From a virus, in UHGV virus genome UHGV-0247404: DNA of 40,710 nucleotides; one strand, given 5' to 3'. A model generated the notes under the pieces. It saw only the letters and a program-made list of their open reading frames with translations, was not told the origin of the DNA and did no database searches. A program made the translations under genes and the position numbers. Of this stretch, positions 1,578-34,891 are shown one piece after another. Position 1 is the first letter of the stretch, and each line of letters begins with the position of its first letter.

Positions 1578-1682
1578 ACGATGAATGAAATCGAAAAAAG
1601 AGCCTACCTCGTTTGCAGACGAAGTCAGGCACTAAACAAAATATATGTAACTAAATAATAACACGGAAAGTAGGGATTTAAA

Positions 1683-20257: not shown

Positions 20258-20857
20258 ATGAAAACAAAAAAACTATTATTGCCAATGCATTTACAATTCT
20301 TTGCTGATAATCCAGATACTGGCACTGGGGGTACGGACCAACCGGCCGGAGGTCAAGAGCAAACACCGCCAGGAGATGGCGGCAAAGATAAAGGTAATGA
20401 AAAAACGTTTTCTCGTGGTGAAGTAGCAAAAATGATCGCTGCTGAAGTATCAAAAACAAAAGAAGCTTGGGAAAAAGAGCAACAAGAAAAACAAGCAGAA
20501 GCAGAAAAACTGGCAAAAATGAATGCTCAAGAAAAAGCTGAACATGAAAAGAAACAGCTAGAAGCAAAAATTGCGGAATTGGAACGTAGTCAAGCATTAG
20601 TTTCCATGTCAAAGGAAGCTTCTAAAATGCTTTCAGAAGCTAGTTTGCCGCATGACGATGATTTGCTAGGATTGATTGTTTCAGATGATGCGGAAGCCAC
20701 AAAAAAAGCTGTCGCTATTGTTACGAACTATGTATCAATGATTAAGAAAGAAAATGCTCGCCAAAAAACACCAGGTGAGGGCGGACAATTTTCAACTGAT
20801 AAAAAAGAAACCGAATCAGTTGCAGCTCTTGCAGCAAGCACACGAATTGTAAAATAG
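20258..20857 (+). CDS. scaffolding protein with N-terminal L27-like Prp cleavage motif
   Basis: Coiled-coil, Glu/Lys-rich 199-aa protein before the capsid gene; N-term MKTKKLLLPMHLQFFA|DNP. Confidence 0.65.
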   Translation: MKTKKLLLPMHLQFFADNPDTGTGGTDQPAGGQEQTPPGDGGKDKGNEKTFSRGEVAKMIAAEVSKTKEAWEKEQQEKQAEAEKLAKMNAQEKAEHEKKQLEAKIAELERSQALVSMSKEASKMLSEASLPHDDDLLGLIVSDDAEATKKAVAIVTNYVSMIKKENARQKTPGEGGQFSTDKKETESVAALAASTRIVK

Positions 20858-20869
20858 GAGGAAATATAA

Positions 20870-21802
20870 ATGAAGAAAAAACAATTAATGAAAATGGATA
20901 TTCAAATGTTTGCTCAAACATGGAATCCAGACAACGTCACAGTATTAGAGAAAAAAGATGGAACAATTCCAGACAAGTACAACACTTTAATTTTAAAAGA
21001 TGTGATGGAAAATTCTAAGTTAATGCAGTTAGCTAAATATGAAGAAATGGACAGCAAAGAAAAGAAATTCGAATACTTTGCAGAAGGTCCTGGAGCATAC
21101 TGGGTTGGTGAAGGTGATAAGATTAAAACGTCTAAACCTAAATGGTTAAACGTAACAATGACTGCGAAAAAAATCGGTGTTATTATCCCAGTTTCTCGGG
21201 AATATTTAACTTATAAGATGTCTGATTTCTTTACTCAAATGCAACCAAAAATCGCAGAAGCATTTTATAAGAAAATTGATGCGGCTACTATCCTTGATAA
21301 AGAAAATCCATTCTCTCAATCTATTGAAAAATCTGTCATTGCAGCTAGTAATGTAATTGAGGGCGACTTGACATATGACAACATTTTAGCATTAGAGGAT
21401 TTGCTTGGAGAAGGTGAATACGATCCGAATGCTTTCATTTCTAATCGTAAGAATCGTACAGTGTTACGTGAAGCAAGTAAAAAAATTGGTGACACAACTC
21501 AATTTATTTATGATCGTGTCAGCAATACTATTGATGGACTGCCTGTAGCAGATCTAAAATCTATGGATAAGGGAAACCTTTATACTGGTGATTTTGATTA
21601 CTTGCGCTATGGTATCCCATTTAACATTAATTTCAAAATTTCAGAAGAAGCTCAATTATCTACTTTAACGAATGAAGACGGTACGCCTGTCAACTTGTAC
21701 GAACAAGAATTGGTTGCTTTACGAGCTACAATGGATATTGGTTTCATGGTCATCAAAGATGAAGCATTTGCTAAGATTCAACCAAAAGCTGCGGGGGAGT
21801 AA
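20870..21802 (+). CDS. major capsid protein with N-terminal Prp cleavage motif
   Basis: 310 aa, strong SD aggagga; N-term MKKKQLMKMDIQMFA|QTW; follows scaffold. Confidence 0.7.
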   Translation: MKKKQLMKMDIQMFAQTWNPDNVTVLEKKDGTIPDKYNTLILKDVMENSKLMQLAKYEEMDSKEKKFEYFAEGPGAYWVGEGDKIKTSKPKWLNVTMTAKKIGVIIPVSREYLTYKMSDFFTQMQPKIAEAFYKKIDAATILDKENPFSQSIEKSVIAASNVIEGDLTYDNILALEDLLGEGEYDPNAFISNRKNRTVLREASKKIGDTTQFIYDRVSNTIDGLPVADLKSMDKGNLYTGDFDYLRYGIPFNINFKISEEAQLSTLTNEDGTPVNLYEQELVALRATMDIGFMVIKDEAFAKIQPKAAGE

Positions 21803-21864
21803 CTAGCCCTGTTGTCGGAAAAGTAACACCGACAACAAATGGGGCGACAATCGAACTAACTTAG
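21793..21864 (+). other. recoding cassette A: G-run slip site plus -1 frame 20-codon extension (TSPVVGKVTPTTNGATIELT) with downstream hairpin 21811-21836
   Basis: -1 frame open from 21775 through the capsid stop to TAG 21862-64; nt and peptide homology to cassette B at 23827-23889. Confidence 0.5.
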
Positions 21865-21875
21865 GTGGTGTTTAG

Positions 21876-22208
21876 ATGTCAGAGATAGCAAATGATGTAA
21901 AAAAATTATTAAATGGCAGTCTTGATGAAAAACTAGAAATCATTGAAAGACGTACAAACGATCGACTTCAAAATATATTGAATGTCACTGAGTTACCAAA
22001 AAGTTTTGATTCAGTTGTATATGAAGTCACTTTAAAACGATTTAATCGTATTGGCCAAGAAGGAATGCAATCTTATTCTCAAGAAGGTTTATCTATGGCA
22101 TTTCCAGACTCTGATTTTTCTGAATATCAAGATGAAATTGAAGAGTATAAGAACAAGGAAATAGAAGAACTTTATAAGCCTAAACATGGGAGGTTTACAT
22201 TTTCATGA
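21876..22208 (+). CDS. head-tail connector protein
   Basis: Size and position after capsid. Confidence 0.45.
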   Translation: MSEIANDVKKLLNGSLDEKLEIIERRTNDRLQNILNVTELPKSFDSVVYEVTLKRFNRIGQEGMQSYSQEGLSMAFPDSDFSEYQDEIEEYKNKEIEELYKPKHGRFTFS

Positions 22209-22540
22209 GATATTTAGATGAAATTACCTTTGTAAAAAAATCTTCAGAATCGCATTATGATCCAAATTCAGGTGAATGGATTGAAGAAGAGCCGTTTAGG
22301 AAAACTACTGATGTCAATGTAACTGATATTGGTACTGATCGTTCTGTTACTATTTTCGGAAGTATTAAAGAAGGGGCTAAGGTAATTAGGACACAGCCCC
22401 TTTTTGTTATTCCAGAATTTGATTACATTGAGTTTGAGGGTAAAACTTGGCAAATTATTACAAGTAGAGTTCCTGCATTAAGAAATAGCTTGATTGTTCA
22501 TGAGGTGATTATTGATGGCAAGAAGTCAAGTAAGAATTAA
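22205..22540 (+). CDS. head closure / head-tail joining protein
   Basis: Position; overlapping start/stop. Confidence 0.4.
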   Translation: MRYLDEITFVKKSSESHYDPNSGEWIEEEPFRKTTDVNVTDIGTDRSVTIFGSIKEGAKVIRTQPLFVIPEFDYIEFEGKTWQIITSRVPALRNSLIVHEVIIDGKKSSKN

Positions 22541-22895
22541 TGGATTAGCTGGAATTTCTAAAAAACTAAAGAGAAATGCTCAACTTGATGATGTGAAAAA
22601 AGTTGTTAGAAATAACACAGCCGAATTAACCGCCAATATGCAAGCTGAAGCCGAAAAGGTGTTAACTGGACACTGGGAAGGTAAAAAGTTTGTTAAACCT
22701 ACAGGGGCAACAAAAAGAAGTATCGTTATGAGGCTTTCGAACAATGGTTTTTCTGGGCATACAGGACCAGGAACAGAATACGCACCGTATTTAATAAACG
22801 GTACGAGATTTATGGTGAAACGTGATTTCTTTTTACCACCGCTGAAACAACAAAAAGTGAAATTTAGAACGGACTTGGAAAGGTTGATGAAATGA
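22512..22895 (+). CDS. HK97 gp10-family neck/tail-completion protein
   Basis: C-terminal [13 protein letters not shown] motif typical of the HK97 gp10 family. Confidence 0.5.
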
Positions 22896-23281
22896 TTAAA
22901 ACAAGAGATCAATCAATCTTCGATGAAGTGTATAAGAAGTGTCAATCACTGGGTTATGAAACCTACGATTATAAACCTATGAATGATGTAGGTTATCCAT
23001 TTGTCGAATTAGAAGATACTCAGACACTGCACCAAGCTAACAAAACTGATATTAAAGGTTCGGTTACATTGAATCTATCTGTATGGGGATTGGCAAAAAA
23101 ACGTAAACAAATATCGGATATGGCTTCAGCAATTTTTGCTGAGGCTCTATCTATTTCTGAAACGGAAGGTTATTATTGGTCGCTCAATATCCAATCAAGC
23201 GGTATTCGGTTAGTAGATGACATTTCGACTAACACACCATTGAAGCGGGCAATGATATCTTTAGAATTCAAAATACTATAG
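22892..23281 (+). CDS. tail terminator / neck protein
   Basis: Position immediately before major tail protein. Confidence 0.4.
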
Positions 23282-23296
23282 AGAGAAGGAATATAA

Positions 23297-23827
23297 ATGG
23301 CTAATGAAGCAAAAGTAGCGGCTAAAGGTATTGATATTATTTTACTTTTCCGTTTGTTAAAAAAATCAAAAGAGGAAGCAGCATGGAAATTAGCTTTCCA
23401 GACAGAACATGAAAATACAAAAACAAAAGATAGTGATTCTGTGGCCACTAAAGATGGTCCGATTCGCATCCCAGGATCATTGGAAATTGATTTTTCGGCA
23501 ACATCTATTTTATCAGTCGGTGATCCGTATGTTGACCAGCTAGAAGAAGCTTTAGACAATGACGATATTATTGAAATCTGGGAAATCAACAAAGCAGAAA
23601 AAGGCACAGGAGATAATGCTGACAAATACAAGGCAACCTATTACCAAGGATATGTAACATCATTTGGTAAATCACCTAATGCTGAAGACACCGTAGAAGT
23701 TTCATTAGAATTTGGTATCAATGGTAAAGGCGCAAAAGGATTTGCAACATTAACTGCTGATCAAGAAGAAGTAGTTCAATATGTCTTCAAAGATACGACT
23801 ATTGAAACAGCTGATCCGGGAAAGTAG
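23297..23827 (+). CDS. major tail protein (TP901-1/phi13-like)
   Basis: 176 aa, strong SD, located before chaperone/TMP; ends with slippery G_GGA_AAG at the stop. Confidence 0.65.
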   Translation: MANEAKVAAKGIDIILLFRLLKKSKEEAAWKLAFQTEHENTKTKDSDSVATKDGPIRIPGSLEIDFSATSILSVGDPYVDQLEEALDNDDIIEIWEINKAEKGTGDNADKYKATYYQGYVTSFGKSPNAEDTVEVSLEFGINGKGAKGFATLTADQEEVVQYVFKDTTIETADPGK

Positions 23828-23889
23828 ATAGCCCTTCTGTGGGAAGTGTAACTCCTACAGTCGATGGGGCTTCTATTGAATTAAGCTAA
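23818..23889 (+). other. recoding cassette B: canonical -1 slippery heptamer G_GGA_AAG (23818-23824) plus -1 frame 20-codon extension (DSPSVGSVTPTVDGASIELS) and hairpin 23837-23859
   Basis: -1 frame open from 23815 across the MTP stop to TAA 23887-89; homologous to cassette A. Confidence 0.6.
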
Positions 23890-23904
23890 GAAAGGAAAAT
23901 AAAT

Positions 23905-24363
23905 ATGGTGGATACTTTTAAAATTTATAAAGGCCAAACCGAAGTTGTTTCCGGCCAATCACCTTTAACTATAACAGGAATGGAACCTAACACCTCAGTG
24001 TCGGCTGGTGAGTACCAAGTAACTCGTGTTGTTAATGGGAAAGAATCAGAGCGAGTAGATATTCCAGCTTTTAAAACATTGTCTATTGCTGTAACTGGCT
24101 TAGAGTTTTCTCCTAAAACGTCCACAGCAGATGCGGGTACTGCAGGTAGCCGACAAATCACAGCAACTGTCTTGCCTGAAAATGCAACCAACAAAAAAGT
24201 AACCTATAAGATTACGCCTGAAACAGAAGGTCTTGCTGTCTCTGAAACAGGAAATATTACTTGGACAGAAGCGGTACCGGCTGGTGTTTATACTACAACA
24301 GGAACAACAGAGGATGGTAAAAAAACAGCTCAACACACCTTAACATTGAATAATCAAGCTTAA
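23905..24363 (+). CDS. Ig-like (BIG2) domain protein, in frame with the MTP -1 extension
   Basis: ITATVLPENATNKKVTYKITPE...GNITWTEAVPAGVYTTTGTTEDGKKTAQHTLTLN is a BIG2 signature; own SD aaaggaaa. Confidence 0.6.
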   Translation: MVDTFKIYKGQTEVVSGQSPLTITGMEPNTSVSAGEYQVTRVVNGKESERVDIPAFKTLSIAVTGLEFSPKTSTADAGTAGSRQITATVLPENATNKKVTYKITPETEGLAVSETGNITWTEAVPAGVYTTTGTTEDGKKTAQHTLTLNNQA

Positions 24364-24377
24364 AATATAAATTTAGA

Positions 24378-24404
24378 GGGCAGCTTGGCGGCTGTCCTTT
24401 TCTT
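24378..24404 (+). terminator. rho-independent terminator after Ig-like ORF
   Basis: gggcagc-ttggcg-gctgtcc followed by TTTTCTT. Confidence 0.45.
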
Positions 24405-24418
24405 ATGGAGGAAAAGAC

Positions 24419-24769
24419 ATGCAAATCGAAATTAAAGGAAAAAAATATAACTGTATTTTTGGAGTCAAGTTTATTCGTGAATTGGATAAGCAGCATGGGG
24501 TAGTTCGTAATGATGTGAATCTTGGGATGGGACTAACAACATTATTACCGCAGCTAGTAAGTGGAAATATCGTTGTTTTATCTGATGTACTCTATACAGC
24601 TACCATTACGGAAAAAAGTAGACCTTCTAAGGATGAAGTAGATGAGTTCGTTGAAACTGTTGATGATATTGAGGCATTATTTGATGAAACGTTGAAACAC
24701 TTAGAAGAAAGCAATGCGGGAAAGTTAACGGTCAGAAATTTCAAGAAAGCTCTGATGGAGAACAAGTAA
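24419..24769 (+). CDS. tail assembly chaperone (G-like)
   Basis: 116 aa between MTP and TMP; contains slippery G_GGA_AAG at 24718-24724. Confidence 0.65.
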   Translation: MQIEIKGKKYNCIFGVKFIRELDKQHGVVRNDVNLGMGLTTLLPQLVSGNIVVLSDVLYTATITEKSRPSKDEVDEFVETVDDIEALFDETLKHLEESNAGKLTVRNFKKALMENK

Positions 24770-25119
24770 GAGAGGAATTAAGCTCAGCTGAAGCTTACGA
24801 AAATATTCTCATTAATTGTTTTCGTTACCTAGAAATTACTGATTTAACAGAAATTGAACGAATGACTTTGTATGAATATGAAGTTAGGCTATTGGCGTTT
24901 CAGTTAAAAAGACTTGATCATGAAAGAGACCTCTATCTCCAATCTTGGCTAAATAACCAAATTAAGGCGACTAAAGGTAAAAAATCCGAACCTTATTATA
25001 AGGAATTCAATAAGTTTTTCAATTATGAAGAACGAGAGAAGCTTATTTTGGGTAAATCATTAATTGATGAAAAAGTTGATATAGGAGCAATTGATTTATT
25101 AAGAAAAGCAAATAAGTAG
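24419..25119 (+). CDS. tail assembly chaperone -1 frameshift fusion (GT-like)
   Basis: -1 frame open from 24688 and continuous with ORF 24862..25119; heptamer G_GGA_AAG sits in the window. Confidence 0.6.
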
Positions 25120-34817: not shown

Positions 34818-34891
34818 GGACCATTAGCTCAGTTGGTTAGAGCAAACGGCTCATAACCGTTCGGTCGATGGTTCGAATCCGTCATGGTCCA
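34818..34891 (+). tRNA. tRNA with CAU anticodon (tRNA-Ile2/LAU-like; Met by anticodon)
   Basis: 7-bp acceptor stem ggaccat/atggtcc, D-arm agctcagttggttagagc, anticodon loop ctCATaa, T-arm ggttcgaatcc; strongly resembles Firmicute tRNA-Ile(CAU). Confidence 0.8.

Follow-up and report, generated by a model that had tools for sequence, protein, structure and literature searches.

A putative programmed -1 frameshift cassette shared by the major capsid and tail-tube genes of a phage, and a tentative split-domain role for its short tag

The 3' end of the major capsid gene in the Enterococcus phage genome UHGV-0247404 is best explained, with a probability of about 0.6, by a programmed -1 frameshift cassette whose short tag takes part in split-domain docking. 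It is highly probable that the cassette does work as a recoding signal, with frameshifting itself and its efficiency inferred and no product detected for this phage. That the tag works by split-domain docking is likewise an inference, which AlphaFold did not confirm and to which we would give an even chance at most. It is already known that frameshifting can give phage capsid and tail proteins long isoforms. Three points are new: low-GC Firmicute phages have G_GGG_GAR beside a stop as a recurring -1 site; one short tag is found on two unrelated virion lattices; and a different gene product seems to contain two-thirds of a domain whose remaining third is this tag. The site breaks the heptamer rule used by annotation tools and is unannotated in the records examined. 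Throughout, the window is the whole stretch of DNA analysed (40,710 nt), and the features at the capsid end are as follows.

20870-21802, + strand: major capsid gene, HK97-type, 310 aa (ORF list; Pfam PF05065 Phage_capsid, E 1.6e-31)
21793-21799, + strand: proposed -1 shift site G_GGG_GAG in X_XXY_YYZ phasing, directly adjoining the capsid stop
21800-21802, + strand: capsid 0-frame stop TAA, the first half of a 6-nt spacer
21806-21845, + strand: two-tier stem-loop, the predicted frameshift stimulator (MFE -19.5 kcal/mol)
21796-21864, + strand: -1 frame tag ORF, (G)VTSPVVGKVTPTTNGATIELT and then TAG (read from the sequence; coding signature and fixed length in relatives)

EFC-1, which is 97.9% identical, has the gene annotated as major capsid protein. 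The ORF closes with gct gcg ggg gag TAA, its 0-frame product ending ...KAAGE, and the -1 frame is open from 21775 and encodes DSTKSCGGVTSPVVGKVTPTTNGATIELT up to the TAG at 21862-64, as the original prediction had it; if used, this frame would give the capsid 21 additional residues. Both arms of the hairpin proposed there, GTTGTCGG (21811-18) and CCGACAAC (21829-36), are present, and the hairpin is real and covarying, but the stimulator is the two-tier stem 21806-21845 and not just these 8 bp: an outer helix (21806-10 with 21841-45) stands below the inner one (21811-18 with 21829-36), which closes a loop of 10 nt. With 13 bp the structure has a z score of -4.8, none of 200 shuffles being as stable, and its 6-nt spacer meets the expectation of a stable 3' structure 5-9 nt after the heptamer.

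In the mechanism we propose, some ribosomes would shift by one base in the -1 direction on G_GGG_GAG, with the adjoining TAA and the stem-loop that starts 6 nt downstream promoting the shift; they would then translate 21 further codons and terminate at the TAG at 21862. The capsid-L isoform would then end ...KAAG-GVTSPVVGKVTPTTNGATIELT, or carry the junction ...AAGE-VTSP... instead if tRNA-Glu, not tRNA-Gly, slips. The junction peptides to be expected are AAGGVTSPVVGK or AAGEVTSPVVGK, depending on which tRNA slips, and recoding should also yield VTPTTNGATIELT and PGKVDSPSVGSVTPTVDGASIELS. That frameshifting occurs in this phage, and how efficiently, is inferred.

A second copy of the cassette lies behind the gene of the major tail (tube) protein (MTP).

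23297-23827, + strand: major tail (tube) protein gene, 176 aa, product ending ...ADPGK (Pfam PF06199 Phage_tail_2, E 7e-18)
23818-23824, + strand: canonical -1 heptamer G_GGA_AAG, phase checked against the ORF start, with TAG (23825-27) directly after it
23825-23875, + strand: MTP stem-loop with its core at 23830-23871 (MFE -22.3 kcal/mol, z -3.5), homologous by aligned register to that of the capsid
23821-23889, + strand: MTP -1 frame tag ORF, KVDSPSVGSVTPTVDGASIELS and then TAA (23887-89) (read from the sequence)

The identity of the tail-tube gene also follows from annotation in EFC-1 and phiEf11. That two structural genes share one recoding tag had been proposed from the 60 nt at 21802-21861, which do align without gaps to 23827-23886 past the MTP stop, with peptides identical at 13/20 residues and all six synonymous codon pairs present. 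When the comparison is made over 21793-21864 and 23818-23889, it gives 49 identities in 72 ungapped positions; no other 72-mer of the window, on whichever strand, exceeds 35, and the background mean is 18.7 (sd 3.8), so that the match is not due to chance. The homology extends over the shift site and the stop (GCGGGGGAGTAAcTAGCCCT versus CCGGGAAAGTAGaTAGCCCT), and a degenerate tag pattern allowing up to three mismatches has two matches in the window, where none is expected from 100 shuffles. An exact-seed repeat search of the window did not list the pair, which the direct ungapped scan did find, because at an identity of just 68% the exact seeds are short. The heptamer G_GGA_AAG is also used in the tail-chaperone gene of this phage.

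Searching with a pattern derived from the tag, without the shift site, gave 55 loci in viruses and 17 in Firmicute prophages; in all of them the tag follows a major head or major tail gene, at an equal distance from its stop. Cassettes occupy the 3' ends of at least six major-head gene families (PHROGs 909, 840, 10 and 544, PF05065 and the phiEf11 capsid) and at least five major-tail families (PHROGs 238, 820, 117 and 88, and PF06199) in Enterococcus and Bacillaceae phages. Their common layout comprises a shift site that usually adjoins the 0-frame stop, a 6-nt spacer, a two-tier stem-loop and a -1 ORF that stops after 21 codons. This anatomy, the conservation of site, spacer, helix, frame and tag length, and the in-frame fusions described below are established by direct comparison, for which the statistics were drawn from 32 distinct homologous cassettes; all sampled loci come from related Firmicute phages and many of the counts share ancestry. 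The alignment of relatives at their 3' ends, which had been put forward as a check, bears out a conserved cassette; the longer extension with a full Ig domain that it might have revealed was never seen, the remainder always being a separate gene.

A slippery site in the correct phase is present in every cassette examined, and the 0-frame stop follows the heptamer directly in 29 of the 32 (at locus L079b the site is retained without an adjoining stop). The original prediction had picked the G-run as the shift site, and its conservation speaks for that choice: NNG_GGG_GAR stands at the same register in 18/32 cassettes, behind unrelated head and tail genes, and the slot is held elsewhere by G_GGA_AAG, which most MTP copies retain, or by G_GGA_AAA, G_GGA_AAC, A_AAA_AAA or A_AAA plus stop. 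The codon preceding GGG always ends in G, though it encodes Ala, Ser, Val, Thr or Leu. Given the codon usage of this genome (GGG 13% of Gly, GAG 19% of Glu, NNG 10-13%), NNG-GGG-GAG is rare by chance. In the capsid site the phase is correct, but YYZ is GAG and non-canonical, while the MTP heptamer is canonical; after the shift, tRNA-Glu at the capsid site would face GGA with a G.U at the middle position. No mention of G_GGG_GAG as a shift site was found in a 2016 recoding review.

Several measures point to translation of the -1 frame. It contains no internal stop in any of the 32 cassettes, against 29/32 and 30/32 with stops in the other two frames; its entropy by codon position is 0.62, 0.64 and 1.38; and its pN/pS is 0.47, compared with 1.17 and 1.30. 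The frame is thus open, conserved and under protein-level constraint, as expected of a frameshift signal, and the earlier claim that the tag peptide is translated and constrained is supported. Furthermore, the tag is fused in frame in the phiEf11-type MTP, where one extra base at the heptamer brings it into frame, in locus L148 and in ORF95 of phage K. The stem-loop is conserved as well, with 77% of cells paired over the 32 cassettes against 32-49% in slid controls, and it covaries at synonymous third positions (the pair 27-42 is seen as UA, GU, CG, AU, GC and UG); at the third positions, column 18 is always C, despite a varying amino acid there, and column 54 always G. The stem was inferred from the single-sequence MFE structure and explicit pair counts, not from an RNAalifold consensus: RNAalifold on the 32 cassettes retained only an invariant CCC/GGG helix. 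The inner helix is a poor fit for those Bacillaceae copies that have ATT. Frame conservation, in-frame fusions, the conserved G-run and the covarying hairpin together mean that the relatives support the recoding reading.

The helix, being clearly under selection at the nucleotide level, would also suit a capsid copy that is not translated and whose open frame is incidental: an RNA element (attenuator, processing site or coupling element) that has been duplicated, or a scar left by recombination where two modules meet. The capsid cassette does lie at a mosaic junction, because the phiEf11 capsid gene is unrelated and the megablast homology of phiEf11 to the window starts only at 21823, within the cassette, with the head-tail genes downstream 92% identical; the extension of phiEf11, moreover, was not seen by mass spectrometry (see below). 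Such a copy would not account for a three-base periodicity, a pN/pS and an absence of stops that are specific to the -1 frame, for a tag stop at the same codon in 31/32 copies, for a slippery site that is always there in the right phase, or for the in-frame fusions; there is no T-run in the sequence after the capsid stem, and the cassette RNA element has no match in Rfam. We therefore hold an untranslated copy to be very improbable. A terminator or attenuator is ruled out by the missing T-run together with the coding signature, and the outcome named in advance as a refutation, a non-coding duplicated terminator without frame conservation, is excluded by the coding signature of the relatives.

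The longer isoforms could in principle arise from stuttering of RNA polymerase on the G5 run of the window capsid or the A7 run of the phiEf11 capsid, with the same protein outcome. Most sites of the family (G_GGA_AAG, G_GGA_AAC, TCA_AAA) offer only 3-4 identical bases, fewer than polymerase slippage requires, and the adjoining stop and the stem-loop conserved at a distance of 6 nt are features of ribosomal shifting. We regard transcriptional slippage as scarcely probable.

Frameshifting at this position has been suggested before, for phiEf11, whose virions contain two bands of the capsid protein ORF10, of 38-39 and 41-43 kDa; a -1 frameshift was tentatively proposed for it and called speculative by its authors, and mass spectrometry found no extension peptides (Stevens et al. 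2016, Bacteriophage 6:e1251381; PMC5221750). phiEf11 ORF10 has the same cassette: its slippery run adjoins the stop, its stem-loop is stable by about -20 kcal/mol and its extension measures 21 aa, although the capsid gene belongs to a different family and the site is A_AAA_AAA instead of G_GGG_GAG. That report does not describe the homology of the extension to the in-frame C-terminus of ORF15 (MTP) or the link to ORF16. EFC-1 and IME197, near-identical relatives of the phage studied here, carry no frameshift annotation.

The tail protein of SPP1 resembles the present case in that a fraction of the subunits acquires FN3 (fibronectin type III) sequence when the major tail gene is recoded at its 3' end: a frameshift adds an FN3 domain to gp17.1, giving gp17.1* in a 3:1 ratio (PMC8718954). 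The SPP1 extension comprises an entire FN3 domain; here the extension accounts for only about 21 residues (strands A-B), the remainder being encoded by a second, independently initiated gene. In Listeria phages A118, A500 and PSA (Cps-L, Tsh-L) and Lactobacillus phage A2 (gp5B, major tail protein), recoding at 3' ends likewise yields longer isoforms, with -1 and +1 versions that are interchangeable and +1 shifts occurring at CCC_UGA (PMC5009743). As in those systems, capsid and tail-tube genes of one phage would both be recoded here, and +1 versions of the module exist too (CCC_TAA in locus L061, CCC_A in S. aureus Triavirus). The Listeria and A2 extensions differ in being longer, Ig-like and self-contained, with no shared short tag or split domain described (PMC5009743); this comparison rests on the review by Atkins et al. 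2016 and not on their sequences. With canonical -1 sites (lambda G-T, G_GGA_AAG; dnaX, A_AAA_AAG) the cassette shares the X_XXY_YYZ phase, the 5-9 nt spacer and the 3' stem-loop. It departs from them in that the capsid G_GGG_GAG breaks the YYZ rule and adjoins the stop (a 'shifty stop' context), and in that the 21-codon extension contains the stimulator, the two being constrained together.

The gene downstream of the MTP cassette brings in the second component of the module.

23905-24363, + strand: gene of a 152-aa protein, the putative partner of both tags, with an FN3-like domain without strands A-B (residues 1-60) and after it a Big_2-like Ig domain

Strand C is where the FN3-like domain of this product starts. 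A complete Ig-like domain within the shifted frame, as in the class of Fraser et al. 2006 (per PMC5009743), is absent here, the remaining FN3 part and the Big_2 domain lying in the separately initiated gene. Such a gene (hereafter the ORF) nearly always comes after the tag or is found elsewhere in its module: the two co-occur in 21/22 tag-bearing loci of at least 4 kb and, when loci were sought by the ORF alone with an alignment of eight N-domain sequences, the tag ORF ended 9-20 nt before the ORF start in 44/44 distinct contexts. Neither in these 44 contexts nor in the 32 cassettes is the tag ever longer than 21 residues. The tag is absent from all 227 ORF family members, of which 212 have their start no more than six residues away from strand C. 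A profile search of 5.8 billion proteins with tag plus ORF gave no contiguous tag-ORF protein among the 120 best matches (144 more are not included in this statement).

That the MTP tag and the ORF are joined by a second recoding event, read-through of or hopping over the TAA at 23887-89, is suggested by their sharing a frame, 12-18 nt apart, in the window, phiEf11 and locus L012. The E. faecalis copies differ by no indel, and their shared frame therefore amounts to one observation. The frame of the ORF with respect to the tag varies among lineages (0, 1 or 2), with gaps of 4-20 nt, and every ORF has its own Shine-Dalgarno sequence and start codon; a second recoding is barely conceivable, and read-through was rejected on these frame statistics.

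In the docking model, the tag would be the A-B beta-hairpin of an FN3-like domain of which strands C-G open the 152-aa protein. This protein would complete its fold on the tag and display its Big_2 Ig-like domain on frameshifted head or tail-tube subunits, with frameshift efficiency setting how many are occupied. Profile evidence comes from L061, where the ORF alone matches positions 32-83 of the Pfam fn3 profile, while the +1-frame tag plus ORF gives a full-length match to PF00041 (2-83; 35.8 bits, gathering cut-off 25). The window-type tag brings no better Pfam FN3 match: the window pair gave only RGI_lyase, an FN3-like domain, in Pfam (positions 34-80 of 86, E 0.02), and a PDB profile search found only fibronectin FN3 (E 0.004), over strands E-G. 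In an AlphaFold2 model of a tag-ORF chimera the ORF reached a pLDDT of 82-96 and the tag 50-55 without strands, a weak test given that no alignment rows covered the tag; the 174-aa chimera modelled without an alignment had a pLDDT of 50.

These structural results leave room for a tag that is translated by frameshifting yet does not dock, either as the remnant of a once-contiguous frameshift-encoded FN3 extension (SPP1 gp17.1*-like, interrupted by a stop codon and a newly arisen start) or with a role of its own, e.g. in assembly, inter-subunit contacts or surface charge. The position of the tag outside the modelled sandwich and the unchanged Pfam scores would fit, as would the orphan tags that have no ORF directly behind them (window capsid, phiEf11 capsid, locus L075) and the decay of tag and site in some lineages (in L132, P to S, A to V and GAG to AAG). 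A mere remnant, however, would not hold its length, frame and pN/pS over Enterococcus, Bacillaceae and Staphylococcus phages. More generally, the absence of docking sits poorly with the constant company of tag and ORF, with strands A-B never being regained in the ORF family, and with the exposed core of an FN3 domain lacking A-B, whose E strand is unpaired in the chimera model. We consider a tag without docking unlikely, though it deserves serious attention.

Docking by strand complementation has analogies in donor-strand complementation in chaperone-usher pili and in engineered split Ig-like tags, where a sandwich without edge strands is completed by another polypeptide. Anastellin, an FN3 domain without strands A-B, was among the Foldseek matches. 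These systems serve as analogy only, since complementation here is inferred and not shown; they also differ in that the donor strands here would be made only by recoding, and no isopeptide chemistry is indicated. No literature on split FN3 or strand-complemented phage decoration was found, and with incomplete coverage this is weak evidence of novelty.

If docking does occur, for which the odds are slightly unfavourable, this would be a natural split-domain system in which one Ig-like adhesin gene decorates two virion lattices, with occupancy set by frameshift efficiency. It would follow, just as tentatively, that a module of shift site, stem-loop, tag and a gene for FN3 lacking A-B moves between unrelated capsid and tail genes; its presence in hundreds of sequenced Enterococcus and Staphylococcus phages is a possibility we hold with the same reserve, as is the provision, in some phages, of the 21-residue A-B hairpin by an in-frame C-terminus and not by recoding. 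A true split domain would amount to a natural peptide-tag/catcher pair for virion decoration and would explain the 'second major tail protein' Ig genes behind capsid or tail genes of many Enterococcus, Staphylococcus and Bacillaceae phages. On the practical side, it would offer a ready handle for cargo display on therapeutic phages with tunable copy number, and the annotation of both gene products would be corrected.

Three further observations favour docking. In phage K the split is maintained without any frameshift. In six phage lineages a head gene and a tail gene each bear the tag, yet there is one ORF, and the tags are more alike within a phage (14.2 of 22) than across phages (12.3 of 22), a within-phage value that is reached in 8/720 permutations.

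The 40.7-kb window represents a temperate-type Enterococcus faecalis siphophage, 97.9% identical to EFC-1 and vB_EfaS_IME197 across 20800-24400, with the following order of structural genes.

20258..20857, scaffold gene
20870..21802, major capsid gene, HK97-type (Pfam PF05065)
21876..22208, head-tail adaptor gene, followed by neck genes
23297..23827, tail-tube protein (MTP) gene (PF06199)
23905..24363, gene for a 152-aa 'second major tail protein', with tail chaperones and tape measure after it

The original prediction held that the capsid and MTP genes carry homologous -1 frame extension cassettes, and this observation was confirmed, with every feature found where it had been described. The capsid gene ends in gct gcg ggg gag TAA, and its -1 frame, open from 21775, gives ...GGVTSPVVGKVTPTTNGATIELT before a TAG at 21862-64; the MTP gene ends in ccg gga aag TAG, and its -1 frame gives ...GKVDSPSVGSVTPTVDGASIELS before a TAA at 23887-89. 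In an ungapped alignment, 49 of 72 bases are identical between 21793-21864 and 23818-23889, compared to at most 35 for any other 72-mer on either strand of the window (mean 18.7, sd 3.8). The extension peptides, hereafter tags, are identical at 13 of 20 residues, and six of the codon differences are synonymous. Both the shift site and the stop fall within this homology, and the MTP site is a canonical G_GGA_AAG in the correct phase. No recoding feature appears in the annotations of EFC-1, IME197 and phiEf11. Megablast similarity with phiEf11 (92% identity) begins at 21823, within the capsid tag, and the capsid genes upstream are unrelated, which places the cassette at a mosaic junction; it could serve to link head modules during recombination.

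We searched public collections with degenerate patterns based on the tag, leaving the shift site out of the pattern, and obtained 55 viral contigs and 25 genome loci. Seventeen of these loci are prophages (Enterococcus spp., Oceanobacillus, Robertmurraya, Lentibacillus, Virgibacillus, Cytobacillus, Bacillus and Atopostipes) and the remaining eight are chance matches, as expected for such a pattern. From these came 32 distinct 78-nt cassettes, which align entirely without gaps, and in each the tag frame begins after the end of a major head gene (PHROGs 909, 840, 10 or 544, PF05065 or the phiEf11 capsid) or a major tail gene (PHROGs 238, 820, 117 or 88, or PF06199), so the cassette is conserved at the capsid and MTP 3' ends of relatives. 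The possibility that relatives carry a longer cassette encoding a full Ig domain was not borne out, as the tag never exceeds 21 residues.

A shift-prone sequence stands at a fixed register in all 32 cassettes, directly followed by the 0-frame stop in 29: NNG_GGG_GAG in 17, GTG_GGG_GAA in one, and otherwise G_GGA_AAG, G_GGA_AAA, G_GGA_AAC, A_AAA_AAA or TCA_AAA plus a stop. The capsid G-run, picked out beforehand as the slip site, is thus the family's commonest site rather than a decayed G_GGA_AAG. It cannot be excluded that tRNA-Glu slips from GAG to GGA ahead of the stop, which would yield a different junction peptide. The codon preceding GGG always ends in G, whether the residue is Ala, Ser, Val, Thr or Leu, and codons of this kind are infrequent in the window genome (GGG 13% of Gly, GAG 19% of Glu, NNG 10-13%); prophage L079b retains G_GGG_GAG though its next codon is CAA and not a stop, and two lineages have G_GGG_AAG. 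From these patterns we infer that re-pairing of tRNA-Gly on G_GGG is the putative element common to the sites.

The -1 frame bears the signature of a coding sequence. Not one of the 32 cassettes has an internal stop in the tag frame, compared to 29 and 30 with stops in the other two frames, and the tag stop codon is at the identical position in 31. Column entropy at codon positions 1, 2 and 3 is 0.62, 0.64 and 1.38, and pN/pS is 0.47 versus 1.17 and 1.30 in the other frames (0.53 versus 0.90 and 1.05 outside the part constrained by the search pattern). At six loci the MTP site of phiEf11-type phages has one extra base (CCAGAAAAAGTAGAT), making the tag the plain C-terminus of a 197-aa protein; the tag is also in frame in the related locus L148, and ORF95 of phage K has a tag-like in-frame end, ...APKNVQVTPKEDGADVSAE. 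The phiEf11 MTP with its in-frame tag (L002, 4490-4570) is reported to run at 28-30 kDa instead of the predicted 21.5 kDa, which its authors left unexplained (PMC5221750).

The hairpin noted in the original prediction proved to be real, covarying across the 32 cassettes and part of a larger structure: capsid nucleotides 21800-21860 form a two-tier stem of 13 bp, pairing 21806-18 with 21829-36 and 21841-45, that begins 6 nt past the heptamer, at -19.5 kcal/mol (z -4.8; 0 of 200 shuffles equally stable). The MTP stem reaches -22.3 (z -3.5) and the phiEf11 capsid stem -19.9. In the alignment 77% of cells are paired, versus 32-49% with partners slid by 1-3 columns, and the covariation score is 0.193 versus 0.02-0.16. 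The third bases of the Val and Pro codons form a pair seen as UA, GU, CG, AU, GC and UG; column 18 is an invariant C even though the codon whose third position it occupies encodes eight different amino acids, and the Gly codon of the 3' arm is GGG in all 32. In the in-frame copy L148 the helix is missing and this codon is GGC, as expected if the helix serves frameshifting. RNAalifold by itself retains only the CCC/GGG helix, the inner helix fits Bacillaceae copies less well, and no Rfam family matches the cassette element. In one lineage of IMG/VR contigs (L132, L140 and L143; ~1400-1500, upstream of the ORF) the cassette is apparently decaying, with a Ser in place of the tag's conserved Pro that breaks the CCC/GGG helix and an Ala to Val change; the L132 site is G_GGG_AAG.

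Conserved site, coding -1 frame and helix across the 32 cassettes support the recoding interpretation. Viewed as a frameshift cassette, the capsid copy adds another example to a known class, with an unusual conserved G_GGG_GAR site. Capsid and tail genes are both recoded, by -1 or +1 shifts, within single phages such as Listeria A118, A500 and PSA and Lactobacillus A2 (PMC5009743). The window's capsid cassette was foreshadowed in phiEf11, whose virions were found by Stevens et al. (2016; PMC5221750) to contain two capsid protein bands of 38-39 and 41-43 kDa. Their proposed explanation combined a -1 shift at the AAAAAAA run and a -20.1 kcal/mol stem-loop, yielding a 21-aa extension. They did not detect the extension peptides by mass spectrometry, labelled the proposal 'speculative' and did not remark on the homology of the extension to the phiEf11 MTP C-terminus.

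Between 4 and 20 nt past the tag stop lies a gene with its own Shine-Dalgarno and start codon, homologous to window 23905..24363. A search with the N-domain of the 152-aa protein alone gave 44 distinct upstream contexts, and in all 44 a tag ORF stops 9-20 nt upstream of the start. Depending on the lineage, the ORF occupies frame 0, 1 or 2 with respect to the tag, which makes them separate polypeptides; none of 227 ORF-family members in a collection of 5.8 billion proteins contains the tag, and 212 start within 6 residues of the motif (T)FKIYKG. The N-domain appears to be FN3-like: its profile matches only fibronectin FN3 domains among PDB sequences, across strands E-G, its Pfam hits to FN3-like profiles leave out the first third, and the AlphaFold model (pLDDT 82-96 in its ORF portion) has FN3 domains as nearest folds, with ~60 residues aligned. 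The related locus L061 is recoded by a +1 shift at CCC_TAA. Its ORF by itself covers Pfam fn3 positions 32-83, whereas tag (NKPGNVKASATDTTVKLEWD) plus ORF matches 2-83 with 35.8 bits, over the curated cut-off, indicating that the extension supplies strands A-B and the next gene C-G. The window tag shares the L061 tag length and a common P-x-V...T...[IL]-E-[LW]-x end and is therefore taken to be a putative diverged form of this element.

An FN3 domain without A-B leaves one sheet as a lone E strand, which is unpaired in the model, and on this basis we propose that the 152-aa protein may complete its own fold on the tag. It would thereby become attached to frameshift-made capsid and tail-tube subunits and could display its Big_2-like domain. 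This docking is an inference with circumstantial support and no experiment. Tag and ORF almost always co-occur, and in at least six lineages (window/EFC-1, phiEf11, L010, L011, L074 and L079) both head and tail genes bear the tag, with a single ORF after either. The two tags of one phage share idiosyncrasies (Phe for Leu in L079, TDDG in L010, TADG in L074) and resemble each other more than tags of different phages do (14.2 versus 12.3 of 22; 8 of 720 permutations), and phage K keeps the split layout without a frameshift. Speaking against docking, AlphaFold left the tag unplaced (pLDDT 50-55), with an input alignment unable to cover it, and window-type tags add nothing to FN3 profile scores. 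An FN3 extension is known from the SPP1 tail-tube protein (PMC8718954); we found no description of a split-FN3 arrangement in the literature, and it is a novel variation on frameshift-mediated Ig-domain display.

With the N-domain, tblastn matched 605 of 50,697 phage records (482 Staphylococcus, 117 Enterococcus), and spot checks among these revealed three variants of one shared layout.

Efquatrovirus IME_EF3 (L168, 1340-1500), capsid, then +1-frame tag (NTPVIGAITTDETSATIELS), then a 77-aa ORF
S. aureus Triavirus phiSa2wa_st30 (L169, 1370-1500), MTP with CCC_A +1 site, then tag, then a Big_2 ORF
Staphylococcus phage K (L170, 837-2004), in-frame tag on ORF95, then ORF96

The IME_EF3 capsid ends in GGT GAG TAA, and a 7-bp hairpin (ACCGGTG / CACCGGT) holds the stop in its loop; no recognisable +1 shift site was seen at this 3' end and the mechanism is unexplained. 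The phiSa2wa_st30 MTP ends in TTA CCC AGC TAA, and a +1 slip on CCC_A would add PANPQNVEVAVNSKSATVSAE, immediately preceding the Big_2 'major tail protein' gene; this split layout also occurs in a large S. aureus prophage group. Phage K ORF96 (adhesin/Ig-like) starts 22 nt past ORF95, at strand C. The solved chains of an ORF95 homologue ('putative Ig-like protein'; PDB 9rox/9roz) end at residue 175 and therefore do not include the tag region.

The structural module of the window contains a third -1 site, a correctly phased G_GGA_AAG at 24718-24724, towards the 3' end of the gene for the tail assembly chaperone (Pfam Phage_TAC_12). This is a classical G/GT-type frameshift, fusing ORF 24419..24769 to ORF 24862..25119 into a 232-aa product. 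Elsewhere in the window, a tRNA gene scoring 70 bits lies at 34818-34891 (+), and 1594-1647 (-) matches Rfam RF02838 'Enterococcus sRNA 55' (45.9 bits, gathering score 43).
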